From Dehalococcoidia bacterium (GTDB taxonomy: Bacteria; Chloroflexota; Dehalococcoidia; DSTF01; JACRBR01): 64,000 nt of DNA. The stretch spans positions 116,792 to 180,791 of the forward strand of contig JBBDXE010000008.1 of the NCBI GenBank assembly GCA_040902505.1, in the 5' to 3' direction. The notes beneath the pieces were generated by a model that did no database searches, had not been told where the DNA came from, and saw nothing but the letters and a program-made list of their open reading frames with translations. Within the stretch, counting starts at the first letter, position 1, and each line of letters opens with the position of its first letter. Below are positions 6,797 through 45,333 of this stretch, piece after piece. Position numbers and translations under genes: made by a program.

Positions 6797-8137
6797 ATGG
6801 CAATCGAAACAAAGTACGACTTCAGCCGCGCTCAGCTCGACGACTCCCAGAGCGAGAACGAGTGGTTCGAGGCGGTCCACGCCATCCACCAGCGCATGCT
6901 GCAAGAAATAGACATGAACGCCATCGAGAAGCTCAGCACCGAGCGCGCGCGAGAGGCCGTGACGGTCGCCGCGCGCCAGCTGGTGACCCAGACCTACCCC
7001 TCCCTTCTCGGAGACGACCGCGAGCGCGTGATCAAGCGCGTCATCGACGAAGCCATCGGCTACGGGCCGATCGAGCCCCTGATCGACGATGACTCCGTGT
7101 CTGAGGTGATGGTGAACGCCCCCGAAGAGATCTACTTCGAGCGCGACGGCATCATCTACCTCTCGCCGCTGCGCTTCAAGGACAACTCCCACATCATGCG
7201 CGTGGTGGAGCGCATCATCGCTCCCCTCGGCCGCCGCGTCGACGAATCGTCGCCCTACGTGGACGCCCGCCTGCCCGATGGCTCGCGCGTGAACATCGTC
7301 ATCCCGCCCCTCGTCCCGCGCAGCCCGACGATGACCATCCGCAAATTCCGCCGCGAGAAGTTCAAGGTCGCGGACCTGATCACCAACGGCACACTCACCG
7401 AGCAGATCTCGGAGTTCATGCGCGCCTGCGTGCGGCAGCGCCTCAACATCGCGATCTCCGGCGGGACGGGCACCGGCAAGACCACGCTGCTTAATGCGCT
7501 GTCAGGGTTCATCCCCAACAGCGAGCGGATCATCTCCATCGAGGACCCGATCGAGATGAAGCTGCAGCAGACACACTCGGTCGCCATGGAAGCCCGCCCA
7601 CCCAACATCGAGGGCAAAAACGAGGTCACCCAGCGAGACCTGGTGCGCAACGCCCTCCGTATGCGCCCTGACCGCATCATCGTCGGCGAAGTCCGCGGTG
7701 CCGAGGCCTTTGACATGCTTCAGGCCATGAACACCGGCCACGAGGGCTCGCTGACCACCGTCCACGCCAACTCGCCCCGGGACGCCCTCATCCGCATCGA
7801 GAACATGGTGATGATGGCGGGCTTCGAACTGCCCGTCCGCGCCATCCGCGAACAGATCGCGGCTGCGCTGCACCTTCTCATCCACATCGCCCGATTCTCG
7901 GACGGACGGCGCCGCGTGATCAACATCACCGAGGTCACCGGCCGCGAAGGAGATACGCTGACGACACAGGACATCTTCGCCTTCCGCCAGGAGGGACTGG
8001 ACCCCGATGGCCGCGTGCTGGGCGACCTCGAGCCAACCGGCATCGTCCCCAGCTTCGCCGATGACTTCGCCCGATCCGGCTTCCCCCTGGAACTCATGCT
8101 CATGCCTGGCATGGCCGCCACGGGAGGTCGCCGATGA
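6797..8137 (+). CDS. cpaF: Tad secretion ATPase CpaF/TadA (VirB11-type)
   Basis: Walker A GGTGTGKTT, Asp box and His box (GHEGSLTTVHANS) of the T2SS/T4SS ATPase family. ATG at 6797 lies 3 nt after the cpaE stop. Confidence 0.9.
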   Translation: MAIETKYDFSRAQLDDSQSENEWFEAVHAIHQRMLQEIDMNAIEKLSTERAREAVTVAARQLVTQTYPSLLGDDRERVIKRVIDEAIGYGPIEPLIDDDSVSEVMVNAPEEIYFERDGIIYLSPLRFKDNSHIMRVVERIIAPLGRRVDESSPYVDARLPDGSRVNIVIPPLVPRSPTMTIRKFRREKFKVADLITNGTLTEQISEFMRACVRQRLNIAISGGTGTGKTTLLNALSGFIPNSERIISIEDPIEMKLQQTHSVAMEARPPNIEGKNEVTQRDLVRNALRMRPDRIIVGEVRGAEAFDMLQAMNTGHEGSLTTVHANSPRDALIRIENMVMMAGFELPVRAIREQIAAALHLLIHIARFSDGRRRVINITEVTGREGDTLTTQDIFAFRQEGLDPDGRVLGDLEPTGIVPSFADDFARSGFPLELMLMPGMAATGGRR

Positions 8138-36690: not shown

Positions 36691-36838
36691 CTAGCAAGGT
36701 GCTGAAAAAGGGGGTACAGGGGGCAGAGCCCCTTGTCGGGGGGCTCCGGGGGGTGTCCCCCCGGATTCACAACCATCCAACTGGGCGGGCGGGTGGGAAC
36801 GTCAACTGTTCCTCTTCGGGTTTTCAGCACCCTGCTAG
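36691..36838. mobile_element. MITE-like element copy 1: 148 bp with 18-bp terminal inverted repeats (CTAGCAAGGTGCTGAAAA ... TTTTCAGCACCCTGCTAG)
   Basis: Near-identical to 55986..56135 (one T-run indel). Internal perfect hairpin ccggggggtgtccccccgg. No coding capacity. Confidence 0.75.
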
Positions 36839-36890: not shown

Positions 36891-36924
36891 TGCTCACGGC
36901 TCACAGCTCAAGGCTCACGGCTGA
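36891..36924 (+). repeat. Short-period tandem repeat (CTCACGG / CTCACAG)n upstream of the GT4 gene
   Basis: tgctcacggctcacagctcaaggctcacggctga. Confidence 0.6.
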
Positions 36925-36927
36925 ATC

Positions 36928-38229
36928 ATGAAAATCTGCTTCCTGATGTACCAGGGCAACATGTACTCGGGTGGGCAGGGCGTCTACCTCTACTACCTGA
37001 CCCGCGAGCTGGCGCGCTTGGGCCACGAGGTGCACGTCATCGCCGGGCCGCCCTACCCCCGCCTCGATGAGGCAGTCACTGCCCACCACATCACCGACTA
37101 CAGCTACTGGACGTACCACCACTACAAGAAGGACTTCATCTTCAACCGGCCGCCCCTCAGCTACTTCCACCCCGTCAACTTCTACGACTTCATCTCCACC
37201 CGCATCAGCCTCTCCTCGCTGCTGGCGAACTTCAGCGTGCGCGCCTACCTCAAGCTGCGCGAACTGTCCCGCGAGCACCGCTTCGACATCGTCCACGACA
37301 ACCAGACCCTGAGCTACGGCGTCTGGGCCGCCCACGCCACGGGATTCCCCCTCGTCGCCACGATCCACCACCCCCTCTCGTACGACCTGCGCAACGCCCT
37401 CCGCCAGGCCCGCACCGCCTACGAACGCGCCCGCCGCATCCTCTGGTCGCCCTGGATGATGCAGGAGGTCGTCGCCCGCCGCATCGAGCGGATCATCGTC
37501 GTCTCCGAGACCTCGAAGGTCGACGTCATGGACGCCTTCGGCCTCCCCGAGGACCGGATCCGCGTCGTCCACAACGGCATCGACACCGACACCTTTCGCC
37601 CGCTTCCGGACGTGGAGCGCCAGCCGGACAAGCTGCTCTACGTCGGCAACTCGGAGGACCGCAACAAGGGCGCCCGCTACCTCCTCGAGGCGCTGGACAT
37701 CCTCAAGGACGAGCTGGACTTCCGCGTGACCTTCGTGGACAACGAGAAGTGGCAGCTCAAGCTCGCCCCCCGCCTCGTCGACGAGCTGGGCCTGCACTCC
37801 CGCGTGGACTTCACCGGACGCATCACCACCCCCGAACTGGTGCGACACTACAACGAGGCGCGCCTCCTCGTCTCTTCGTCGCTGCACGAGGGCTTCGGCC
37901 TGCCGCTGGCGGAGGCGATGTCCTGCGGCACGCCCGTCATCGGGACGCAGATCGGCGCCTTCCGCGAGATCGTCCGCCACGGCGAAGACGGCTGGCTCGT
38001 CCCCCCCGGAGACTCCCGCGCGCTTGCGGAGGCGATCCGGATGATGTGGAATGACCCATCGTTGCGGGAGCGCCTCGGCGAGGCCGGCCGGCGCCGGATC
38101 CTCGATCGCTTTAGCTGGCGCCGCGCCGCCGAGCAGACGGTCGCCGTCTACGAGGAAGTTGCGCGGCCCCGGCGGAGCGTGCATCGGGCGCCCGCCATCG
38201 CTTCTACAGGTCAGGACCAGGACCGCTAG
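36928..38229 (+). CDS. Glycosyltransferase family 4 (GT-B, RfaB-like)
   Basis: N-terminal MYQGNMYSGGQGVY sugar-donor-loop motif. The C-terminal E-X7-E region (..SSSLHEGFGLPLAEAMSCGTPVIGT..) is typical of GT4. Confidence 0.8.
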   Translation: MKICFLMYQGNMYSGGQGVYLYYLTRELARLGHEVHVIAGPPYPRLDEAVTAHHITDYSYWTYHHYKKDFIFNRPPLSYFHPVNFYDFISTRISLSSLLANFSVRAYLKLRELSREHRFDIVHDNQTLSYGVWAAHATGFPLVATIHHPLSYDLRNALRQARTAYERARRILWSPWMMQEVVARRIERIIVVSETSKVDVMDAFGLPEDRIRVVHNGIDTDTFRPLPDVERQPDKLLYVGNSEDRNKGARYLLEALDILKDELDFRVTFVDNEKWQLKLAPRLVDELGLHSRVDFTGRITTPELVRHYNEARLLVSSSLHEGFGLPLAEAMSCGTPVIGTQIGAFREIVRHGEDGWLVPPGDSRALAEAIRMMWNDPSLRERLGEAGRRRILDRFSWRRAAEQTVAVYEEVARPRRSVHRAPAIASTGQDQDR

Positions 38230-38242
38230 CGCAGGAGCGCGC

Positions 38243-39016
38243 GTGCCCGACAACATCGTCAACGTCGACTTCCGCCGGCACTTCCGGCTCCGCCCCGGCG
38301 AGCGCGTACTCGACCTGGGCTGCGGCAGCGGCCGCCACACCCTCGAGGCCGCACGCTACCCCGTCCGCGTCGTCGGGCTCGACTTTTCCCGCGACGACCT
38401 GCAGGCCGCGCGCTTCATGTACGCCGACCTCCAGCGCAAGGGACAGGCCCCCGGCCATGTCGACTTCATCGTCGGCGACGCGCAGAACATGCCGTTCAAA
38501 GACGGCGCCTTCGACAAGTCGATCTGCACCGAAGTCTTCGAGCACATCCCCGACGATGCGCGCGGCATCGCCGAGTTCGAGCGCGTGACCAGGCCCGGCG
38601 CGGCGGTCGCAGTGAGCGTGCCGAACTACTGGCCCGAGACCGCCTTCTGGACGCTCAGCTGGGGCTACTGGCACACCCCCGGCGGCCACGTACGCCGCTA
38701 CCGCCCCGGGCAGATGCGCGGGATACTCGAGCAACAGGACATAACGATCGCATTCCAGCGCAACCGCCACTCATTCCAGTCCGTCTACTGGTTCTTCCGC
38801 TGCCTCTTCGGCATCGACAACGAGGGCTTCCTGCCCGTTCGCGTGTTCCAGAAGTTCATCAACTGGCACCACGCCCGCCGCATCAAGCTCCTGGAATACG
38901 TCGAAGCGACCGCCAACCTCGTGATCGGGAAGGATATGATCCTCTACGGCCGCAAGCGCGGCGGCGCCACGGAAGAGCCGGCTGCCGTCGCTGCCGCCGG
39001 CGCGCGCGAAGGATGA
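38243..39016 (+). CDS. Class I SAM-dependent methyltransferase
   Basis: GTG 38243 after a CAGGAG RBS. VLDLGCGSG motif I, with ..FDKSICTEVFEHIPDD.. and ..RVTRPGAAVAVSVPN.. SAM-MTase motifs. The longer ORF from 38051 overlaps the GT and is rejected. Confidence 0.75.
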   Translation: MPDNIVNVDFRRHFRLRPGERVLDLGCGSGRHTLEAARYPVRVVGLDFSRDDLQAARFMYADLQRKGQAPGHVDFIVGDAQNMPFKDGAFDKSICTEVFEHIPDDARGIAEFERVTRPGAAVAVSVPNYWPETAFWTLSWGYWHTPGGHVRRYRPGQMRGILEQQDITIAFQRNRHSFQSVYWFFRCLFGIDNEGFLPVRVFQKFINWHHARRIKLLEYVEATANLVIGKDMILYGRKRGGATEEPAAVAAAGAREG

Positions 39017-40587
39017 AGATGATCGAGAGCACCACGCTGGATCGCTTCCAGTCCGTCGACCCGCGCCTGCTCGATATCGCCGCCACCGACAACGTCGTCG
39101 ACATCGGCTGCGGGACCGGACGTCACGTGCTGGAGCTGGCGAAGGCCCCGGCGAACATCATCGGCGCCGACATCTCGTCCGAGGATCTGCTCAAGGGCCG
39201 CTACCTCATCGAGATCATGCGCCGGCGCCGCGAGGTGCAGGCCCGCGTGCACTGGATGCAGGCCGCCGGCGAACACCTCCCCTTTGCCGACGGCGCGTTC
39301 GACCGCGTCATCTGCACCGAGACGCTGGAGCACGTCGAGGACGATGCGCTCCTCGCGCGCGAGTTGGTGCGCGTGCTCAAGCCCGGCGGCATCCTCGCCA
39401 TCAGCGTCCCCGATGAGTACTCCGAGCGGCTGTTCTGGAAGCTCTCCGTGAACTACCGCACACACGTCGGCGGCCACGTCCGCATCTACAGCCGGCCGAG
39501 GATCGTCCGCCTCATGCGCGAGGCCGGGCTGCGCCCCTACGCCGTCCGCTACCGCCACTCGCTCGAGACCATGTACTGGCTCGGCCATGTCGCCTTCTGG
39601 AGCGAGTGGGGGAAGCAGGGCCCCATCACCAGCGCCTTCCGGAAGCTCCTCGATTCGCCGCGCTTGCGTGAGTCGAAGCTCATGTCCGCCCTCGATGACA
39701 TCGGCAACCGCATCCTCCCCAAGAGCATCGTCGTCTACAGCCGCAAGCCGCTCGACGAGCCGCTCGCGCCCGTGACGCTCGCCGACGAGACGCCGCACGA
39801 GTTCGGCGTGCCGGAGCATCTCGCGCCGGAGGTGGACGCCGAGGCGGCCTTCCGCGAAGCCCTCGTCGCCGCCGGTGAGCTGCCGTCGGCGAACGGCCAC
39901 GGCGCCGCCCGCGAGGCGGAGGAGCCCGACGACCGCACAGCCGTCGAGGTGCGCGCCGTCCCCGCTCCGTTCGAGATCGACCCCAACGCAGGCGGCGCCC
40001 CTGCAGCCTCCGGGCCGCTCGTCCTCCGCGACGAGTTGCGGATCGCCCTCACCCTCGAAGGCGAAGCGCAGAAGCAGCGCCTGGTGGAGATCCTGCGCTC
40101 CTGCCGCTTCCGCTTCATCGGCGAGGTCCAGGAGCTGTCCGGCGAGCAGGCCTCGACGCCCTGGACGCCCGACGGCCGTTCGATGAAGGAGATCGTCGGC
40201 CACATGACCGGCTGGGAACTCTGGGTCGTCACCGCCCTTGAGGAGATCGCCGCGGGCGCCGCCGAGCCCGGCATCATGTCGCTCTCCGGCTACCCCGTCG
40301 GCATCAGCCGCTACGGATCGATCGACGCCTTCAACGCCGCCCGCATGGCCGAGACGCGCGAGCGCATGTGGTCGGCCGTCCTCGCCGACTCCGACGCCAC
40401 GTTCGAGCGCCTACTCGCCGCCGTCGAGCGCGTGCCCGCGTCCTCACTGCGGCAGACGGCGCCCTTCTTCTGGCCCGACCTCGGCGGCACCGTCCCGTGC
40501 GGCGTCTACCTCCTCATGGTCTCCGCCCACCACTACCAGGAAGAGCACCTCCCCGAAGTGCTGAGAGGCCCCGCCGCTGCGCGCTAG
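39013..40587 (+). CDS. SAM-dependent methyltransferase fused to a C-terminal DinB/ClbS-like (DUF1706-type) four-helix-bundle domain
   Basis: The N-terminal half (VVDIGCGTGRH.., FDRVICTETLEHVEDD) is paralogous to the preceding methyltransferase. The C-terminal ~170 aa (..SMKEIVGHMTGWELWVV..HHYQEEHL) is ClbS/DinB-like. ATGA overlap with the upstream methyltransferase gene. Confidence 0.6.
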   Translation: MKMIESTTLDRFQSVDPRLLDIAATDNVVDIGCGTGRHVLELAKAPANIIGADISSEDLLKGRYLIEIMRRRREVQARVHWMQAAGEHLPFADGAFDRVICTETLEHVEDDALLARELVRVLKPGGILAISVPDEYSERLFWKLSVNYRTHVGGHVRIYSRPRIVRLMREAGLRPYAVRYRHSLETMYWLGHVAFWSEWGKQGPITSAFRKLLDSPRLRESKLMSALDDIGNRILPKSIVVYSRKPLDEPLAPVTLADETPHEFGVPEHLAPEVDAEAAFREALVAAGELPSANGHGAAREAEEPDDRTAVEVRAVPAPFEIDPNAGGAPAASGPLVLRDELRIALTLEGEAQKQRLVEILRSCRFRFIGEVQELSGEQASTPWTPDGRSMKEIVGHMTGWELWVVTALEEIAAGAAEPGIMSLSGYPVGISRYGSIDAFNAARMAETRERMWSAVLADSDATFERLLAAVERVPASSLRQTAPFFWPDLGGTVPCGVYLLMVSAHHYQEEHLPEVLRGPAAAR

Positions 40588-40810
40588 TTGTTAGTTCTCA
40601 GTCATCAGTAGCCAGTAGTTCGTGGGACGGGCGCATTGCAGGACTTTCGGAAGCTCGAAGTGTGGCGGAAAGCTCATGAGCTAACCCTGCTCGTGGATCA
40701 GCCGGGTGCTTGCTGACAAAATGACGGCTGAGACACTGACAACTAATGACTGAGGACTGAAGAACTGAGAACTGAAGACTGAAGACTGAGAACTGAAGAC
40801 TCACAACTCC
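40588..40810 (+). repeat. Composite spacer: inverted blocks of ACTGARR heptamers flanking a ~110-bp core
   Basis: The 5' block gttagttctcagtcatcagtag is the reverse-complement orientation of the repeat. The 3' block is gactgaggactgaagaactgagaactgaagactgaagactgagaactgaagact. Confidence 0.6.
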
Positions 40811-42106
40811 ATGAAGCTCGCCTTCATCATGTACCAGGGCAACATGTACTCGGGTGGACAGGGCGTCTACCTGCACTACATCACCCGCGAGCTCGTCCGC
40901 CTCGGCCACGAGGTGCACGTCATCTCCGGACGCCCCTACCCCACCCTCGCCGAGGGCGTCGTCCACCATCGCCTTCACACCTACAGCTTCTGGGCCTTCC
41001 TCAACGGTCGCGACGACCACGCCTACGATCACACCCACAACCCCGCCGAGTTCTTCCACCCCTGGAACTTCTACGAGTTCGCCTCCACCCGCGCCTCCCT
41101 CGCGTCGCTCTTCTTCACCTTCAGCGTCCGCGCCTACCGCAAGCTGGCCGAGCTGGAGGCCGCCGGCGGCCCCTTCGACCTCGTGCACGACAACCAGACC
41201 CTCGGTTACGGCATCCTCGCGATGCGCCAGCTGCGCGGCCGCCCCGTCGTCGCCAGCATCCACCACCCGCTCGCCATCGACCGCGCGAACAACCTCCGCG
41301 AAGCCCGCAGCCTCACCGCCCGCATCACGAAGGAGCTGTGGTTCCCCTGGCGCATGCAGTCCTACGTCGCCAACCGGCTCGACCTCATCCTCACCGGCTC
41401 ACGCAACTCCGCCCACTCCGTCAGCGCCGCCATGGACATCCCCATCGGGCACATTCGCCAGACTCCCTACGGCGTCGACCACGAGGTGATGCGCCCGCTG
41501 CGCGGCGTCCCTCGCGAGCCCGGCACCATCCTCTTCGTCGGCGACTCCGAGGACCGCAACAAGGGCGCGCGCTTCCTCATCGAGGCCTGCGGCCGGCTCG
41601 CGCAGGAGATGGACTTCCGCCTGCTGTTCAAGGACAAGAAGGAGAAGGACATGAAGGTCGTGCCGCCGCTGGTCTGGCAGCACGGCCTCATGCGCAACGT
41701 CGAATACATCGCGCGCGTCTCGACCGATGAGCTGGTGGCGCTGTACAACCGCGCCCAGGTCGTCGTCTCGCCGTCACTCTACGAAGGCTTCGGCCTCCCC
41801 GCCGCCGAGGCCATGGCCTGCGGTACCCCCGTCGTCGCCACCACCGCCGGCGCCTTCCCCGAGTTTATCGAGGACGGCCGCACGGGCATCCTCGTCCCCC
41901 CCGGCGACCCCGCCGCCCTCGCCGCCGCTATCCGCGCGCTCCTCACCGACCCCGAGCGCTGCGAGCGCATGGGGGCCGCCGCCAGCGAGCACATCCGCAC
42001 CAACTTCACCTGGACCCGCACCGCCCACCGCACCCTCGAGGTCTACGACGAAGTCCTCCCCCCGCACCCGCGTGCCACTCGCCCGGTAGTTGGCGGGCGG
42101 CGCTGA
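40811..42106 (+). CDS. Glycosyltransferase family 4 (paralog of 36928..38229)
   Basis: MYQGNMYSGGQGVYLHYITRELVRLGHEVHVI.., nearly identical N-terminal architecture. E-X7-E region present. Confidence 0.8.
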   Translation: MKLAFIMYQGNMYSGGQGVYLHYITRELVRLGHEVHVISGRPYPTLAEGVVHHRLHTYSFWAFLNGRDDHAYDHTHNPAEFFHPWNFYEFASTRASLASLFFTFSVRAYRKLAELEAAGGPFDLVHDNQTLGYGILAMRQLRGRPVVASIHHPLAIDRANNLREARSLTARITKELWFPWRMQSYVANRLDLILTGSRNSAHSVSAAMDIPIGHIRQTPYGVDHEVMRPLRGVPREPGTILFVGDSEDRNKGARFLIEACGRLAQEMDFRLLFKDKKEKDMKVVPPLVWQHGLMRNVEYIARVSTDELVALYNRAQVVVSPSLYEGFGLPAAEAMACGTPVVATTAGAFPEFIEDGRTGILVPPGDPAALAAAIRALLTDPERCERMGAAASEHIRTNFTWTRTAHRTLEVYDEVLPPHPRATRPVVGGRR

Positions 42107-42842: not shown

Positions 42843-44126
42843 TCAAGGGGTAGTCTCCCTGCACACCCCGGCCCGGTCGTCCGCGTTGCCCCGGGCGCTG
42901 TTCCCCGACGTGATCACGTTGCCCGCCTGGAAGATGCAGATGGCCGATCCTCTGTTGTCGAAGATCTCGTTGTTCTCGATGCGCCCCAGCGACGTGTTCA
43001 CGTACGACACGCCGATCCCGCGGTTTCGGTAGATCCGCGAGTTCGTGAGGTTCAGGTTCGCCCCCTGCGCCAGCACCCCGCCCCCCAGCGTCCCCGTGTC
43101 TGGCAGCACCACGCTGTCGTGGATGTCGTTGTTGTTGAGGCTTCCGGACGCCCGGATGCGCTCGCCGCTCCGCACCTGCGGATACTTCGTCGGGTCGGGG
43201 AACGCCCGGAACTCGATCGCGTGCTCCTCGTTTCCGTCGTACTCGTCCGCCTCCGACGTCACGCTCGCCCCCCACACGAACAACCCCGTGAGCACGTTTC
43301 GCCAGATGTGGTTGTTCCGGAACGTCCCCCGCGTCCCCGGGAACATCACGATGCCCGTGCTGCCGCTGCTCTGGATCACGTTCCCGTCGAGGATGATGTT
43401 CGCGTCCCCGACGAACCCGCGCAGGTTCGAGAGATAGCACTCCGGGATCTCCACCACCGCCGGCGGCAGCAGCGCGCACGGCGTCTGCCCCGCGAACACC
43501 CCCGGCCCCCGGTTGTGTGAGATGATGTTCCGCACGATCGTCGTCGTCGCCGTCTGCCCCACCGTCGATACCCCCACCCCGCCATTGTCGATGATCCAGT
43601 TCCGCTCGACCGTCGCGTTCGATTCGCGCCGCACCAGCACGCCGTCGCCGCTCATCGCGTACACGAACGAATCGCTGACCCGCCCGATGCTCCCCACGTC
43701 GAAGTGGATCCCCACGACCCCGCCCCCGGCGTCGATCCGCGCGAAGTTGATGTTCTGGCTCCGCCAGACGTAGGCGTTCGTCGGGTTCCCGAGATACAGC
43801 GTGAAGTCCTCGAACACGAGGTCGCGGCTGTTGAAGACCAGCAGCCCGTCCTTCGCCCCGCCCACGATCACCGTCGCCTTCGGCCCCAGCCCCCGCAGCG
43901 TCACGCCGGTCTTCGAATCGAAGGCCACCGGCCCGAGGTACACGCCCGCCGTCATGCAGATCACGTCGCCCCGGCCCGCCCGGTCGATGAGCGCCTGCAG
44001 CGTGTCCGGCCGCGCCAGCGTCGTGCACGCCTCCTGCCCCGCCGCGCGCGGCGCAACACCGGCCCCTCCGCCGGCGAGTAGCGCGATCAGGAAGACGATC
44101 GGGACAACAGGCCGCATCCGCCGCAT
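42843..44126 (-). CDS. Secreted right-handed parallel beta-helix (pectate-lyase/NosD-like PbH1 repeat) protein
   Basis: Signal peptide MRRMRPVVPIVFLIALLAGGGAGVA. Repeated ..NN.I..N..G.. beta-helix rungs. Start at 44126 with a GGAGG RBS. The 556-aa upstream extension is rejected. Confidence 0.6.
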   Translation of the reverse strand: MRRMRPVVPIVFLIALLAGGGAGVAPRAAGQEACTTLARPDTLQALIDRAGRGDVICMTAGVYLGPVAFDSKTGVTLRGLGPKATVIVGGAKDGLLVFNSRDLVFEDFTLYLGNPTNAYVWRSQNINFARIDAGGGVVGIHFDVGSIGRVSDSFVYAMSGDGVLVRRESNATVERNWIIDNGGVGVSTVGQTATTTIVRNIISHNRGPGVFAGQTPCALLPPAVVEIPECYLSNLRGFVGDANIILDGNVIQSSGSTGIVMFPGTRGTFRNNHIWRNVLTGLFVWGASVTSEADEYDGNEEHAIEFRAFPDPTKYPQVRSGERIRASGSLNNNDIHDSVVLPDTGTLGGGVLAQGANLNLTNSRIYRNRGIGVSYVNTSLGRIENNEIFDNRGSAICIFQAGNVITSGNSARGNADDRAGVCRETTP

Positions 44127-44247: not shown

Positions 44248-45333
44248 ATGTCCCTGCCAAGACGGGAGACCATGGGAAACGTCCTAGTGATCCTGGGAGC
44301 CGGCGCCTCATACGATTGTGTGTGGAGGAGCGAGGTTGGAATCGACAAGAAATGGCGGCCACCGCTCGCGGACCAGCTGTTCTCGGACGAGTACCTAGAG
44401 ACGCGCCGGAAGTACGCAAGCGTTGCGAGCTTGGCCCAGCAACTCAATGCGGAACTCCGGCTGCCAGGAAGGGACGAGAACTTCGAGGTGCTGCTCGCGC
44501 GGTTGGCGGCCAACCCAACTCGCCAGCGGCGAATGCAGTTTCGGGAAGTTCCTGCTTACCTGCGCGATCTCCTAGGTCACGTCAGCCGAGCGTACACGAC
44601 AGAAGCACCGAGTTGTTATACCCGTCTGTTCGGCCAACTACTGGACGCTGGCGTTGGCAAGGTCGCCTTTGTGACGCTCAACTACGACACCTTGCTTGAG
44701 CGAGCAATCGCAGAGGCAGACGGCGAGCCGTTCTCCATGGACTGGTACACGCAGCATGATGAGTGGATGGTCATCAAGTTGCACGGTTCAGTGAACTGGG
44801 GCCGAAGGATCGTGCAGTATCCCAAGGAAATCAGGTGGGGGCCGGGAATGAGAAATGTCTCTGCCGGGCCCGACGTTTACCTGGAGCTGCTCAGGAATAT
44901 TGACGACTTAGAGGAATGCACAAGCGATGTCGTCGAGATCATGCTGGGCAACCCCGAGACGAACTGGATGAGGAATGAGCCATACTATCCGGTACTAGCG
45001 GTCCCAGTCGAGAACAAGCTCCAACCTGTATGCCCACAGGCTCACTTGGAGGCGCTAGGGAGCTTCCTCCCGCTCTGTACTGATGTGCTTGCGATTGGCG
45101 TCAGTTGGCGAGACAAGGATCTGATCGACATCTTGAACGAAGGACTACCTGACAATGCGAACTTTCTCTACGTCGGGTGGGACGACGAGTACGAGGAGTG
45201 TCTCGATCGCTTCCGGGCTGCAGTTCCTCATGTTCCGGCCGCGCGTCCGACAGACTTTTCCCCGGCGAACGGGTTTAGCGACTTCATCGAAGGAGGAGCG
45301 CTCGCCAAATTCATCTCAAGGGCGAGAAGCTAG
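44248..45333 (+). CDS. SIR2_2-family (SIR2-like NAD-binding) protein encoded in a lower-GC islet
   Basis: Contains the ordered motifs VLVILGAGAS, FVTLNYDTLLE and IKLHGSVNW, which define the SIR2_2 (DUF4020-like / ThsA-type) NADase fold. Local GC is visibly lower than in flanking genes. An alternative start is M9 (44272). Confidence 0.65.
   Translation: MSLPRRETMGNVLVILGAGASYDCVWRSEVGIDKKWRPPLADQLFSDEYLETRRKYASVASLAQQLNAELRLPGRDENFEVLLARLAANPTRQRRMQFREVPAYLRDLLGHVSRAYTTEAPSCYTRLFGQLLDAGVGKVAFVTLNYDTLLERAIAEADGEPFSMDWYTQHDEWMVIKLHGSVNWGRRIVQYPKEIRWGPGMRNVSAGPDVYLELLRNIDDLEECTSDVVEIMLGNPETNWMRNEPYYPVLAVPVENKLQPVCPQAHLEALGSFLPLCTDVLAIGVSWRDKDLIDILNEGLPDNANFLYVGWDDEYEECLDRFRAAVPHVPAARPTDFSPANGFSDFIEGGALAKFISRARS

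Follow-up and report, generated by a model that had tools for sequence, protein, structure and literature searches.

Introduction

The methylmannose polysaccharides (MMP) and methylglucose lipopolysaccharides (MGLP) are regarded as peculiar to mycobacteria and some other actinomycetes, a role in sequestering fatty acyl chains and in adaptation to temperature having been proposed for them, and the MMP gene cluster has been described solely in Actinobacteria (PMC9883506). Here we analyze a locus of four genes, all on the forward strand, at positions 36928-42106 of a 64-kb stretch of DNA (68% G+C; hereafter, the window) from a metagenome-assembled genome (MAG) of a Dehalococcoidia bacterium, in which two glycosyltransferase (GT) genes of family GT4 enclose two methyltransferase (MT) genes. 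This locus is probably a Chloroflexota offshoot of the core enzyme pair of the MMP cluster, whose GTs would build a soluble intracellular oligo- or polysaccharide and whose MTs would methylate it.

The reference cluster of M. hassiacum (locus L003) comprises, in this order, ManT, pMeT3 (243 aa, Methyltransf_11), MmpH, and, on the opposite strand, MeT1 (Methyltransf_24). MmpH is an endomannosidase essential for MMP biogenesis in M. smegmatis that serves chain cleavage and priming, and MeT1 is a reducing-end 1-O-methyltransferase that serves end capping.

Results

The two outer genes, GT4-1 (36928-38229, 433 aa) and GT4-2 (40811-42106, 431 aa), encode soluble ManT-like proteins predicted to be retaining GT-B enzymes, both with the Pfam domains Glyco_transf_4 and Glycos_transf_1 (E values of 1e-30 to 1e-36). 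The two inner genes, MT1 (38243-39016, 257 aa) and MT2 (39019-40587, 522 aa), encode pMeT3-like MTs dependent on S-adenosylmethionine (SAM) with matches to Methyltransf_11, Methyltransf_25, and Methyltransf_31, and MT2 carries in addition a C-terminal DinB-type domain. The GTs are paralogs (51% identity over 418 aa, E = 2e-141) that share the N terminus MYQGNMYSGGQGVY...LGHEVHVI, and the MTs are paralogs as well, MT1 matching the N-terminal domain of MT2 at 34% identity over 220 aa (E = 5e-47). An earlier note, made by a model from the letters alone, had described this arrangement, including the common N terminus, and had likened it to the polymethylated-polysaccharide clusters of actinomycetes; the likeness turns out to reflect real homology, of the GTs to ManT and of the MTs to pMeT3.

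Against all PDB sequences, the best match of each GT was 7QSG, over the full length (209 bits, E = 9.6e-61 for GT4-1; 202 bits, E = 9e-59 for GT4-2), with the runners-up for both at 90 to 94 bits (E of about 1e-24). The protein in entry 7QSG is ManT of M. hassiacum, which elongates MMP as an α-(1→4)-mannosyltransferase (PMC9883506). Direct comparison with locus L003 gave 34% identity between ManT and each GT (E = 1e-66 for GT4-1 and 4e-61 for GT4-2). Hidden Markov models (HMMs) were built solely from canonical-clade sequences of clusters linked to MmpH or MeT1, and the ManT model scored 400 bits with GT4-1 and 389 to 393 bits with GT4-2; among the remaining open reading frames (ORFs) of the window, none matched these canonical-cluster HMMs. 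NCBIfam holds no model for ManT or pMeT3. Its glgA_Coryne model TIGR02149 gave 130 and 114 bits with GT4-1 and GT4-2, compared with 116 bits for ManT itself and a cutoff of 302.4, and ManT and the window GTs also score alike with the MshA model, all of them far under the cutoff, while the match of a window GT to GlgM (6TVP) in the PDB sequence search stood at E = 7e-18. The link to ManT is already latent in databases through automatic annotation and has not been analyzed, as P0438, a protein 78% identical to GT4-1, bears the JGI automatic label "MMP alpha-(1->4)-mannosyltransferase."

Both GTs belong to CAZy family GT4 by the combination of Glyco_transf_4 and Glycos_transf_1 with an E-x7-E motif, and EGFGLP..EAM is kept. 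Residues G15, H142, K240, E313, G314, F315, L317, and E321 of ManT have been discussed and partly mutated, with the K240A, E313A, and E321A mutants being inactive or crippled (PMC9883506). Apart from L317, which is leucine in both window GTs and in 37 of the 45 sequences of their clade, these residues (G15, H142, K240, E313, G314, F315, and E321) are invariant in 96 aligned sequences of the canonical and window clades described below, and the retaining GT-B chemistry is therefore conserved.

For the MTs, pMeT3 matches MT1 at 36% identity over 236/243 residues (E = 3e-56) and the N-terminal domain of MT2 at 34% identity over 236 aa (E = 3e-40), with 134 to 170 bits. The canonical pMeT3 HMM gave 228 bits with MT1 and 205 bits with MT2, compared with 48 to 52 bits for two unrelated Methyltransf_11 proteins of the same loci, taken as a control. 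The pMeT3 match runs well beyond the Rossmann core into a C-terminal extension with the motifs GGH(V/I)R.Y and GKS..Y..KP. In MT2, the MT domain spans approximately residues 14-247 (39052-39753), as placed by tblastn with pMeT3, AlphaFold2, and Foldseek, and the predicted local distance difference test score (pLDDT) of its AlphaFold2 model lies between 58 and 96 in ten-residue blocks up to residue 190 and between 48 and 83 past it.

The closest solved structures to the MT domain, by PDB sequences and Foldseek, are those of the sugar O-methyltransferases AtmM and RebM, in keeping with methylation of a sugar, although these two, like MitM and TleD, act on natural products. A nonpolymeric acceptor might instead receive one or two methylated sugars; it could be a glycolipid, compatible solute, protein, or secondary metabolite, and the DinB-type domain would bind or process the aglycone. 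DinB-superfamily proteins often handle small molecules (thiol S-transferases, ClbS), and GT4 includes glycolipid and small-molecule enzymes, such as PimA, MshA, and BshA. We find this doubtful, because the matches of RebM, MitM, and AtmM cover just about 110 core residues at 44 to 60 bits (50 to 60 bits for the closest natural-product MTs, against 134 to 170 bits for pMeT3 over the full length), because the relationship of the GTs to ManT is roughly twice as strong as that to PimA, MshA, or BshA, and because genes for aglycone or lipid biosynthesis are absent nearby. At the family level, then, the closest relatives were neither unrelated GT4 families nor small-molecule MTs, the two outcomes that the earlier note had named as speaking against its comparison.

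Relatives of the locus were collected by scanning one genome per species, from 185,579 species, with the motifs FD[VLI]VHDNQ and [NK][MT][YH][SC]GGQGV, and the family survey rests on the best 80 loci of at least 596 confirmed relatives, in which a local tblastn run with proteins of the window and of M. hassiacum located the genes. Virtually all loci of sufficient length have a GT4 gene followed by an MT gene. Acidimicrobiia, Microthrix, Streptomyces, Embleya, Nocardiopsis, and other Actinomycetota carry ManT-pMeT3-MmpH, mostly together with MeT1, which in some actinobacterial loci lies several kb off. Four Desulfobacterota-type MAGs have ManT-pMeT3 with MeT1 or MmpH, and one Dehalococcoidia MAG (L028) has GT4-pMeT3-MmpH. 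With the Desulfobacterota-type and Dehalococcoidia MAGs counted in, the loci with canonical clusters are L028, L033, L034, and L036-L083; MAGs of Acidimicrobiia, Microthrix, and sponge-associated Actinomycetota often have such clusters, and their distribution is wider than that surveyed for Actinobacteria in PMC9883506, with binning errors possible. Other Dehalococcoidia and Myxococcota or "delta" MAGs have GT4-MT-GT4 without MmpH or MeT1, three loci (L010, L012, and L013) show a compact GT4-MT-MT-GT4-GT4 operon, and the closest relatives of the window (L001, L005, L008, L009, and L018) have GT4-MT-MT::DinB-GT4.

Neighbor-joining trees (distance based, midpoint rooted, no outgroups, 200 bootstraps) split the GTs into a canonical ManT clade, mostly from Actinomycetota and linked to MmpH or MeT1, and a second clade that includes the window and consists mainly of Chloroflexota and Myxococcota MAGs with duplicated GT4 genes. 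The canonical clade has 100% bootstrap support without L028 and 88% with L028, which groups there and not in the clade of the window. Three Chloroflexota paralog groups, GT4-1, GT4-2, and GT4-3, are united at 100% bootstrap, the groups themselves reaching 99%, 77%, and 99%, respectively. The MT tree mirrors the GT tree, and the GT-MT pair has therefore evolved together; by the MT tree, MT1 and MT2 are paralogs born in the Chloroflexota sublineage. Where the third GT paralog stands alone (L014 and L015), its neighbors are unrelated housekeeping genes.

Several other features of these loci were seen in passing. The GT4-MT-GT4 clusters L016, L019-L021, and L031 have GNAT and NUDIX genes directly upstream on the same strand (checked with Pfam in L016 only) and an unrelated Methyltransf_11 gene downstream on the opposite strand, at the place that MeT1 takes in MMP clusters (in L016, these features are at 7000-8004 and 11193-11963); these three neighbors could be functional analogs for acetylation, nucleotide-sugar hydrolysis, and end methylation. 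The GT4-1 orthologs of the long-read assemblies L001 (7765-9059) and L018 (8001-9249) are split into two or three frameshifted pieces, which are either assembly errors or pseudogenes. L005 (6059-9845) has an insertion of about 3.8 kb between MT1 and MT2, so the tight junction of these genes is not universal.

The partner enzymes of the canonical cluster were sought by tblastn with the M. hassiacum proteins against all frames of the 64-kb window. The earlier note had suggested looking for a glycoside hydrolase partner, and none emerged, the best MmpH match having an E value of 0.41; it had also proposed comparison with enzymes of the pathway, of which ManT and pMeT3 found counterparts in the window and MeT1 found none (best E = 2.2). 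Across the clade of the window, neither MmpH nor MeT1 occurs within 8 kb in about 30 loci.

These absences weigh against a simple MMP-like reading of the locus, and several other points do so as well. The window genes lie outside the canonical ManT clade, at 34 to 36% identity, and all relatives are MAG or metagenome sequences whose taxon labels may carry binning errors. Asp293 of ManT has been proposed, by analogy with Asp253 of PimA, to contact the guanine N2 of the guanosine diphosphate (GDP)-mannose donor, and pMeT3 is itself still merely a putative 3-O-methyltransferase (PMC9883506). Of 51 canonical sequences, 43 have Asp at position 293 and 42 have Gly at position 290; of 45 sequences of the window's clade, none has Asp at position 293 (Thr in 22, Val in 9, and Thr in both window GTs), and 38 have Arg at position 290. 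GDP-mannose as the donor is not supported by these alignments, because position 293 is never Asp in the window's clade; the donor nucleotide may differ from that of ManT, hence the sugar may differ too, and we therefore treat the product as a methylated glycan of unspecified composition. Moreover, the linkage of GT4-2 to the other three genes is unstable across genomes, and no polymethylated polysaccharide has been reported from Chloroflexota, a text search of the available papers having found none that pairs "methylmannose polysaccharide" with "Chloroflexi."

The same evidence bears on whether the locus makes authentic MMP, a 3-O-methyl-α-1,4-mannan as in mycobacteria, with MmpH and MeT1 encoded elsewhere in the genome. 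The homology to ManT and pMeT3 and the retained catalytic residues would agree with this, as would the L028 cluster, by which the full pathway exists in Dehalococcoidia, and the remote MeT1 of some actinobacterial loci. Yet L028 belongs to the canonical clade and not to that of the window, MmpH and MeT1 were found within 8 kb in 0 of the roughly 30 window-clade loci, the predicted guanine contact is lost across that clade, and two or three GTs with two MTs are unnecessary for a homopolymer, which together make authentic MMP quite unlikely.

The C-terminal domain of MT2 (residues 336-518, 40018-40566) had been taken in the earlier note for a DinB/ClbS-like four-helix bundle, and structure prediction bears this out. 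Pfam matches on residues 352-510 fall just under threshold (DUF1706, 23.5 bits with a cutoff of 24.2; DinB_2, 21.4 bits with a cutoff of 24.8), and some MT2 homologs carry DUF1706 or DinB_2 matches. AlphaFold2 modeled the domain alone as four long helices with a pLDDT of 94.7 and a predicted template modeling (TM) score of 0.90, and full-length MT2 as the MT domain, a disordered linker of variable length (residues 250-335), and a confident C-terminal domain. Foldseek against the PDB returned only the DinB superfamily at the top (TM scores of 0.5 to 0.75, probability of 1.00, best E = 1.6e-3), namely, YfiT (1rxq), mycothiol-dependent maleylpyruvate isomerase (MDMPI; 2nsg/2nsf), TT2238, ClbS (7mtl), DfsB, and the N-terminal domains of OvsA and EgtB, with TM scores of 0.60 to 0.75 to YfiT, MDMPI (2nsg), and ClbS; by sequence, the domain has no match in the PDB. 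The modeled fold confirms a DinB-superfamily assignment. Residues H397, W401, E402, H507, Y508, E511, and H512 are invariant in 53 MT2 homologs and sit on two of the four long helices, namely, helix 2 (H391-413) and helix 4 (H496-518); in metal-dependent DinB enzymes of the YfiT/MDMPI type, the metal ligands, a His/His/His or His/Glu/His triad on helices 1 and 4, lie on comparable helices. Within the linker, the motif DDR..VEVRAVPAPF (residues 306-320, 39928-39972) is nearly invariant amid variable sequence, with D306, R308, E312, V313, R314, A315, A318, and P319 unchanged in the 53 homologs and a pLDDT of <50, and it may be a docking peptide.

The fusion is as unusual as the earlier note had supposed, being confined to one Dehalococcoidia lineage. 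It has more than 100 homologs at 59 to 71% identity, those with a name all being from Chloroflexota or Dehalococcoidia metagenomes. An exhaustive HMMER search of 1.84 billion representative proteins gave 147 matches at E ≤ 1e-3, and the one full-length cluster (at 50% identity) below 1e-30 is the MT-DinB fusion family itself. The next-nearest matches are stand-alone proteins of 160 to 200 aa at 25 to 36% identity, several of them without a Pfam match, and those with tandem domains are of the DUF1706/DinB_2/MDMPI_N types. The fusion is lineage specific, and it is recent, because the MT2 orthologs of L010 and L012 have no DinB domain.

The earlier note had tied both MT genes to their neighbors by ATGA overlaps, and this is mostly wrong: there is one such overlap, at 39013-39016 between MT1 and MT2, none between GT4-1 and MT1, and a 223-bp gap between MT2 and GT4-2. 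An ATG ORF of 321 aa (38051-39016) overlaps GT4-1 by 179 nt, and its 64 N-terminal residues are an Arg/Ala/Pro-rich out-of-frame read-through. The true MT1 start is most likely GTG 38243, 13 nt past the TAG stop codon of GT4-1, because AGGAG stands 5 nt upstream and a product of the same 257 aa was called independently on a Logan contig. At the next junction, ATG 39013 overlaps the MT1 stop codon (TGA, 39014-39016), but this ATGA is probably not the MT2 start in use: the methionine of the second ATG, 39019 (M3 of the longer frame), is invariant in 53 MT2 homologs, and this codon is preceded at 7 nt by GAAGGA and opens the NCBI protein of 522 aa; the ORF that starts at ATG 39013 has no exact record. 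Window MT2 is identical to NCBI protein P0001 of a Dehalococcoidia bacterium MAG, and window GT4-1 is identical to NCBI protein P0387 of a Dehalococcoidia MAG.

GT4-1, MT1, and MT2 form one tightly coupled operon, and this is the stable unit, because the position of GT4-2 varies among genomes; GT4-2 co-occurs with it, and cotranscription is not obligatory. GT4-2 is adjacent to the other genes in L001, L005, L009, and L018, shares a contig with them at a distance of about 45 kb in L004/L022, stands beside an inverted MT2 in L025, and is found without MT genes in L017. In the window, it is parted from the operon by the gap (40588-40810, forward strand), which is outside the enzyme system and contains a decayed PF05635-type gene, a relative of the four-helix-bundle, bAvd-like proteins of 23S rRNA intervening sequences. 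Positions 40636-40695 translate to LQDFRKLEVWRKAHELTLLV, the first 20 codons of such a gene, 70% identical to the N terminus of an intact counterpart of 119 aa at the same position in L001 (11505-11864). Inverted arrays of 7-nt repeats (AGTTCTC and ACTGAGA types) flank the remnant, with arms at 40586-40621 and 40759-40794, and the remnant and its intact counterpart resemble two states of one small mobile or insertion element.

Upstream of GT4-1 (36691-36838) there is an 18-nt inverted repeat, 94% complementary, around a G+C-rich 112-nt spacer, and four tandem GCTCAMRG units (36892-36919) directly precede its start codon. The spacer has a weak Rfam match to Clostridiales-2 (26 bits, with a gathering score of 58.6); the Rfam scan for riboswitches and other RNA elements gave no match that reaches the gathering score, and a scan for promoters and terminators gave no sites.

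The upstream neighbors of the locus are genes for an amidase, a UbiB-family kinase, a family III coenzyme A (CoA)-transferase, and a GNAT protein, and the downstream neighbors are genes for a glyoxalase, an exported beta-helix protein, a SIR2-like ORF, prolyl-tRNA synthetase (ProRS), and GroEL. Farther off lie genes for major facilitator superfamily transporters, orotidine monophosphate decarboxylase, an ATP synthase subunit, a flavin mononucleotide dehydrogenase, and a solute-binding protein. Within about 15 kb on each side, there is no gene for Wzx, Wzy, an ABC exporter, an initiating phosphoglycosyl or polyprenyl-phosphate transferase, or sugar-nucleotide synthesis, and a hydrophobic stretch that could span the membrane is missing from all four proteins. 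Soluble proteins, a context of housekeeping genes, and the absence of a flippase, polymerase, and exporter fit an intracellular product such as MMP.

This bears on a further explanation, that the genes belong to a cell surface glycan pathway for a capsule, S-layer glycan, or exopolysaccharide (EPS) with methylated sugars. The generic JGI label, "glycosyltransferase involved in cell wall biosynthesis," would suit it, as would the weak NCBIfam matches to EPS-type GT4 families and the exported beta-helix protein, which is syntenic with GT4-2 in close relatives. We regard it as very unlikely, given that the EPS and lipopolysaccharide family scores are far under their cutoffs (for example, 123 bits for EpsE with a cutoff of 400), that the export, polymerization, initiation, and sugar-nucleotide genes are absent from the surroundings, that all four proteins are soluble, and that the beta-helix synteny holds in close relatives only and with changing orientation relative to GT4-2.

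The beta-helix protein (42843-44126, reverse strand) has right-handed Beta_helix/NosD repeats, a clear signal peptide at an internal Met start, and no relative among PDB sequences. On these grounds and for its limited, shifting synteny, it was rejected as a hydrolase partner in place of MmpH; it cannot serve a cytoplasmic polymer because it has a signal peptide. The glyoxalase, GNAT, and CoA-transferase genes were likewise set aside as parts of the system, the glyoxalase and beta-helix genes being syntenic with GT4-2 in the closest relatives only and the upstream genes being unconserved. A defense system reading, raised by a "GT4-conflict" Pfam match, was also dismissed, as PADLOC returned nothing for the GT and a generic MT-core match for MT2. 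Between the beta-helix gene and proS, on the forward strand (44248-45333), lies an ORF of 361 aa with a SIR2_2 domain (E = 1.4e-8) and weak PADLOC SIR2 matches (E of about 2e-4), situated in the lowest-G+C stretch of the window (62.5%, compared with about 68%); the syntenic interval of L001 has two small ORFs, and the gene may be an acquired defense-type gene.

Discussion

MAGs of Chloroflexota, Myxococcota, and Nitrospinota hold a deep sister family of the ManT-pMeT3 pair, and Acidimicrobiia, Desulfobacterota-type MAGs, and one Dehalococcoidia MAG have canonical clusters with MmpH and/or MeT1, suggesting that methylated sugar polymers are not confined to actinobacteria. If the products are indeed methylated glycans, the known distribution of this class of compounds widens, and the loci would be natural variants without the MmpH recycling step, with a bearing on the unsolved priming of such polymers.

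In the reading that we prefer, in which an offshoot of the MMP enzyme pair makes a methylated cytoplasmic glycan, GT4-1 and GT4-2 would extend an oligo- or polysaccharide from a nucleotide sugar, with GT4-2 acting in trans to the GT4-1/MT1/MT2 operon, and MT1 and MT2 would O-methylate the freshly added sugar residues with SAM. The presence of two GT and two MT paralogs, and of a third GT elsewhere in related genomes, suggests a product more complex than a simple 3-O-methyl-α-1,4-mannan, either with two kinds of linkage or residue or with two methylation positions. Since MmpH and MeT1 are lacking, priming, chain-length control, and end capping must differ from those of MMP. The DinB-type domain of MT2, with its invariant His and Glu residues, would be the best candidate for an accessory role, possibly metal-dependent handling of a substrate or end group, or else scaffolding, a hypothesis that we favor because the lineage lacks MmpH and MeT1 and that gives this previously unstudied fusion a concrete, testable biochemical context. 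More tentatively, we speculate that Chloroflexota, Myxococcota, and other phyla could make a distinct cytoplasmic methylated glycan with two or three ManT-like GTs, two pMeT3-like MTs, a donor other than GDP-mannose, and no MmpH recycling, to which, in the lineage of the window, a metal-binding DinB domain might add a priming, end-capping, or chain-length function.

Among described proteins, the members of the DinB superfamily (DinB_2, DUF1706/ClbS, YfiT/BstA, and the N-terminal domains of MDMPI and EgtB/OvoA) have the four-helix-bundle fold predicted for the C-terminal domain of MT2. Unlike them, this domain stands C-terminal to a sugar-type MT, with some 85 residues of disordered linker in between. 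A combination of DinB and MT domains is found in OvoA too, in a different order and with a sulfoxide-synthase domain separating the two.

Closer to the window are the GT4-MT-GT4 and GT4-MT-MT-GT4-GT4 clusters of other Chloroflexota and Myxococcota MAGs (L010, L012, L016, L019-L021, L031, L032, and L035), which fall in the same GT and MT clade and likewise have duplicated GTs without MmpH or MeT1. In the five-gene operon of L010 and L012, unlike in the window, the MT2 ortholog has 242 to 245 aa and no DinB domain; in the lineage of the window, a DinB domain was added to MT2, the third GT disappeared from the neighborhood, and GT4-2 became less firmly linked.

The MGLP genes, which encode the α-1,4-glucosyltransferase Rv3032 and the MTs Rv3030 and Rv3037c, follow a shared logic, in that a cytoplasmic GT4 and SAM-dependent MTs yield a polymethylated polysaccharide (PMC9883506). 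Their enzymes were compared with those of the window through NCBIfam and PDB proxies only, the GTs standing at 114 to 130 bits against the TIGR02149 cutoff of 302.4. This model presumably covers Rv3032-type enzymes.

The MMP cluster (ManT/pMeT3/MmpH/MeT1) offers the fullest comparison. Its host is an actinomycete and that of the window belongs to Dehalococcoidia; it has MmpH and MeT1, whereas the window has neither within 64 kb; and, unlike it, the window carries the GT in two paralogs (three in some relatives) and the MT in two, one of them fused to a DinB-type domain, with the Asp293 position replaced, and forms a separate sister clade at 34 to 36% identity. What they share is the core: a GT gene followed by an MT gene in tight coupling, GTs homologous to ManT with its catalytic residues kept, MTs homologous to pMeT3, and soluble enzymes encoded apart from any export machinery.

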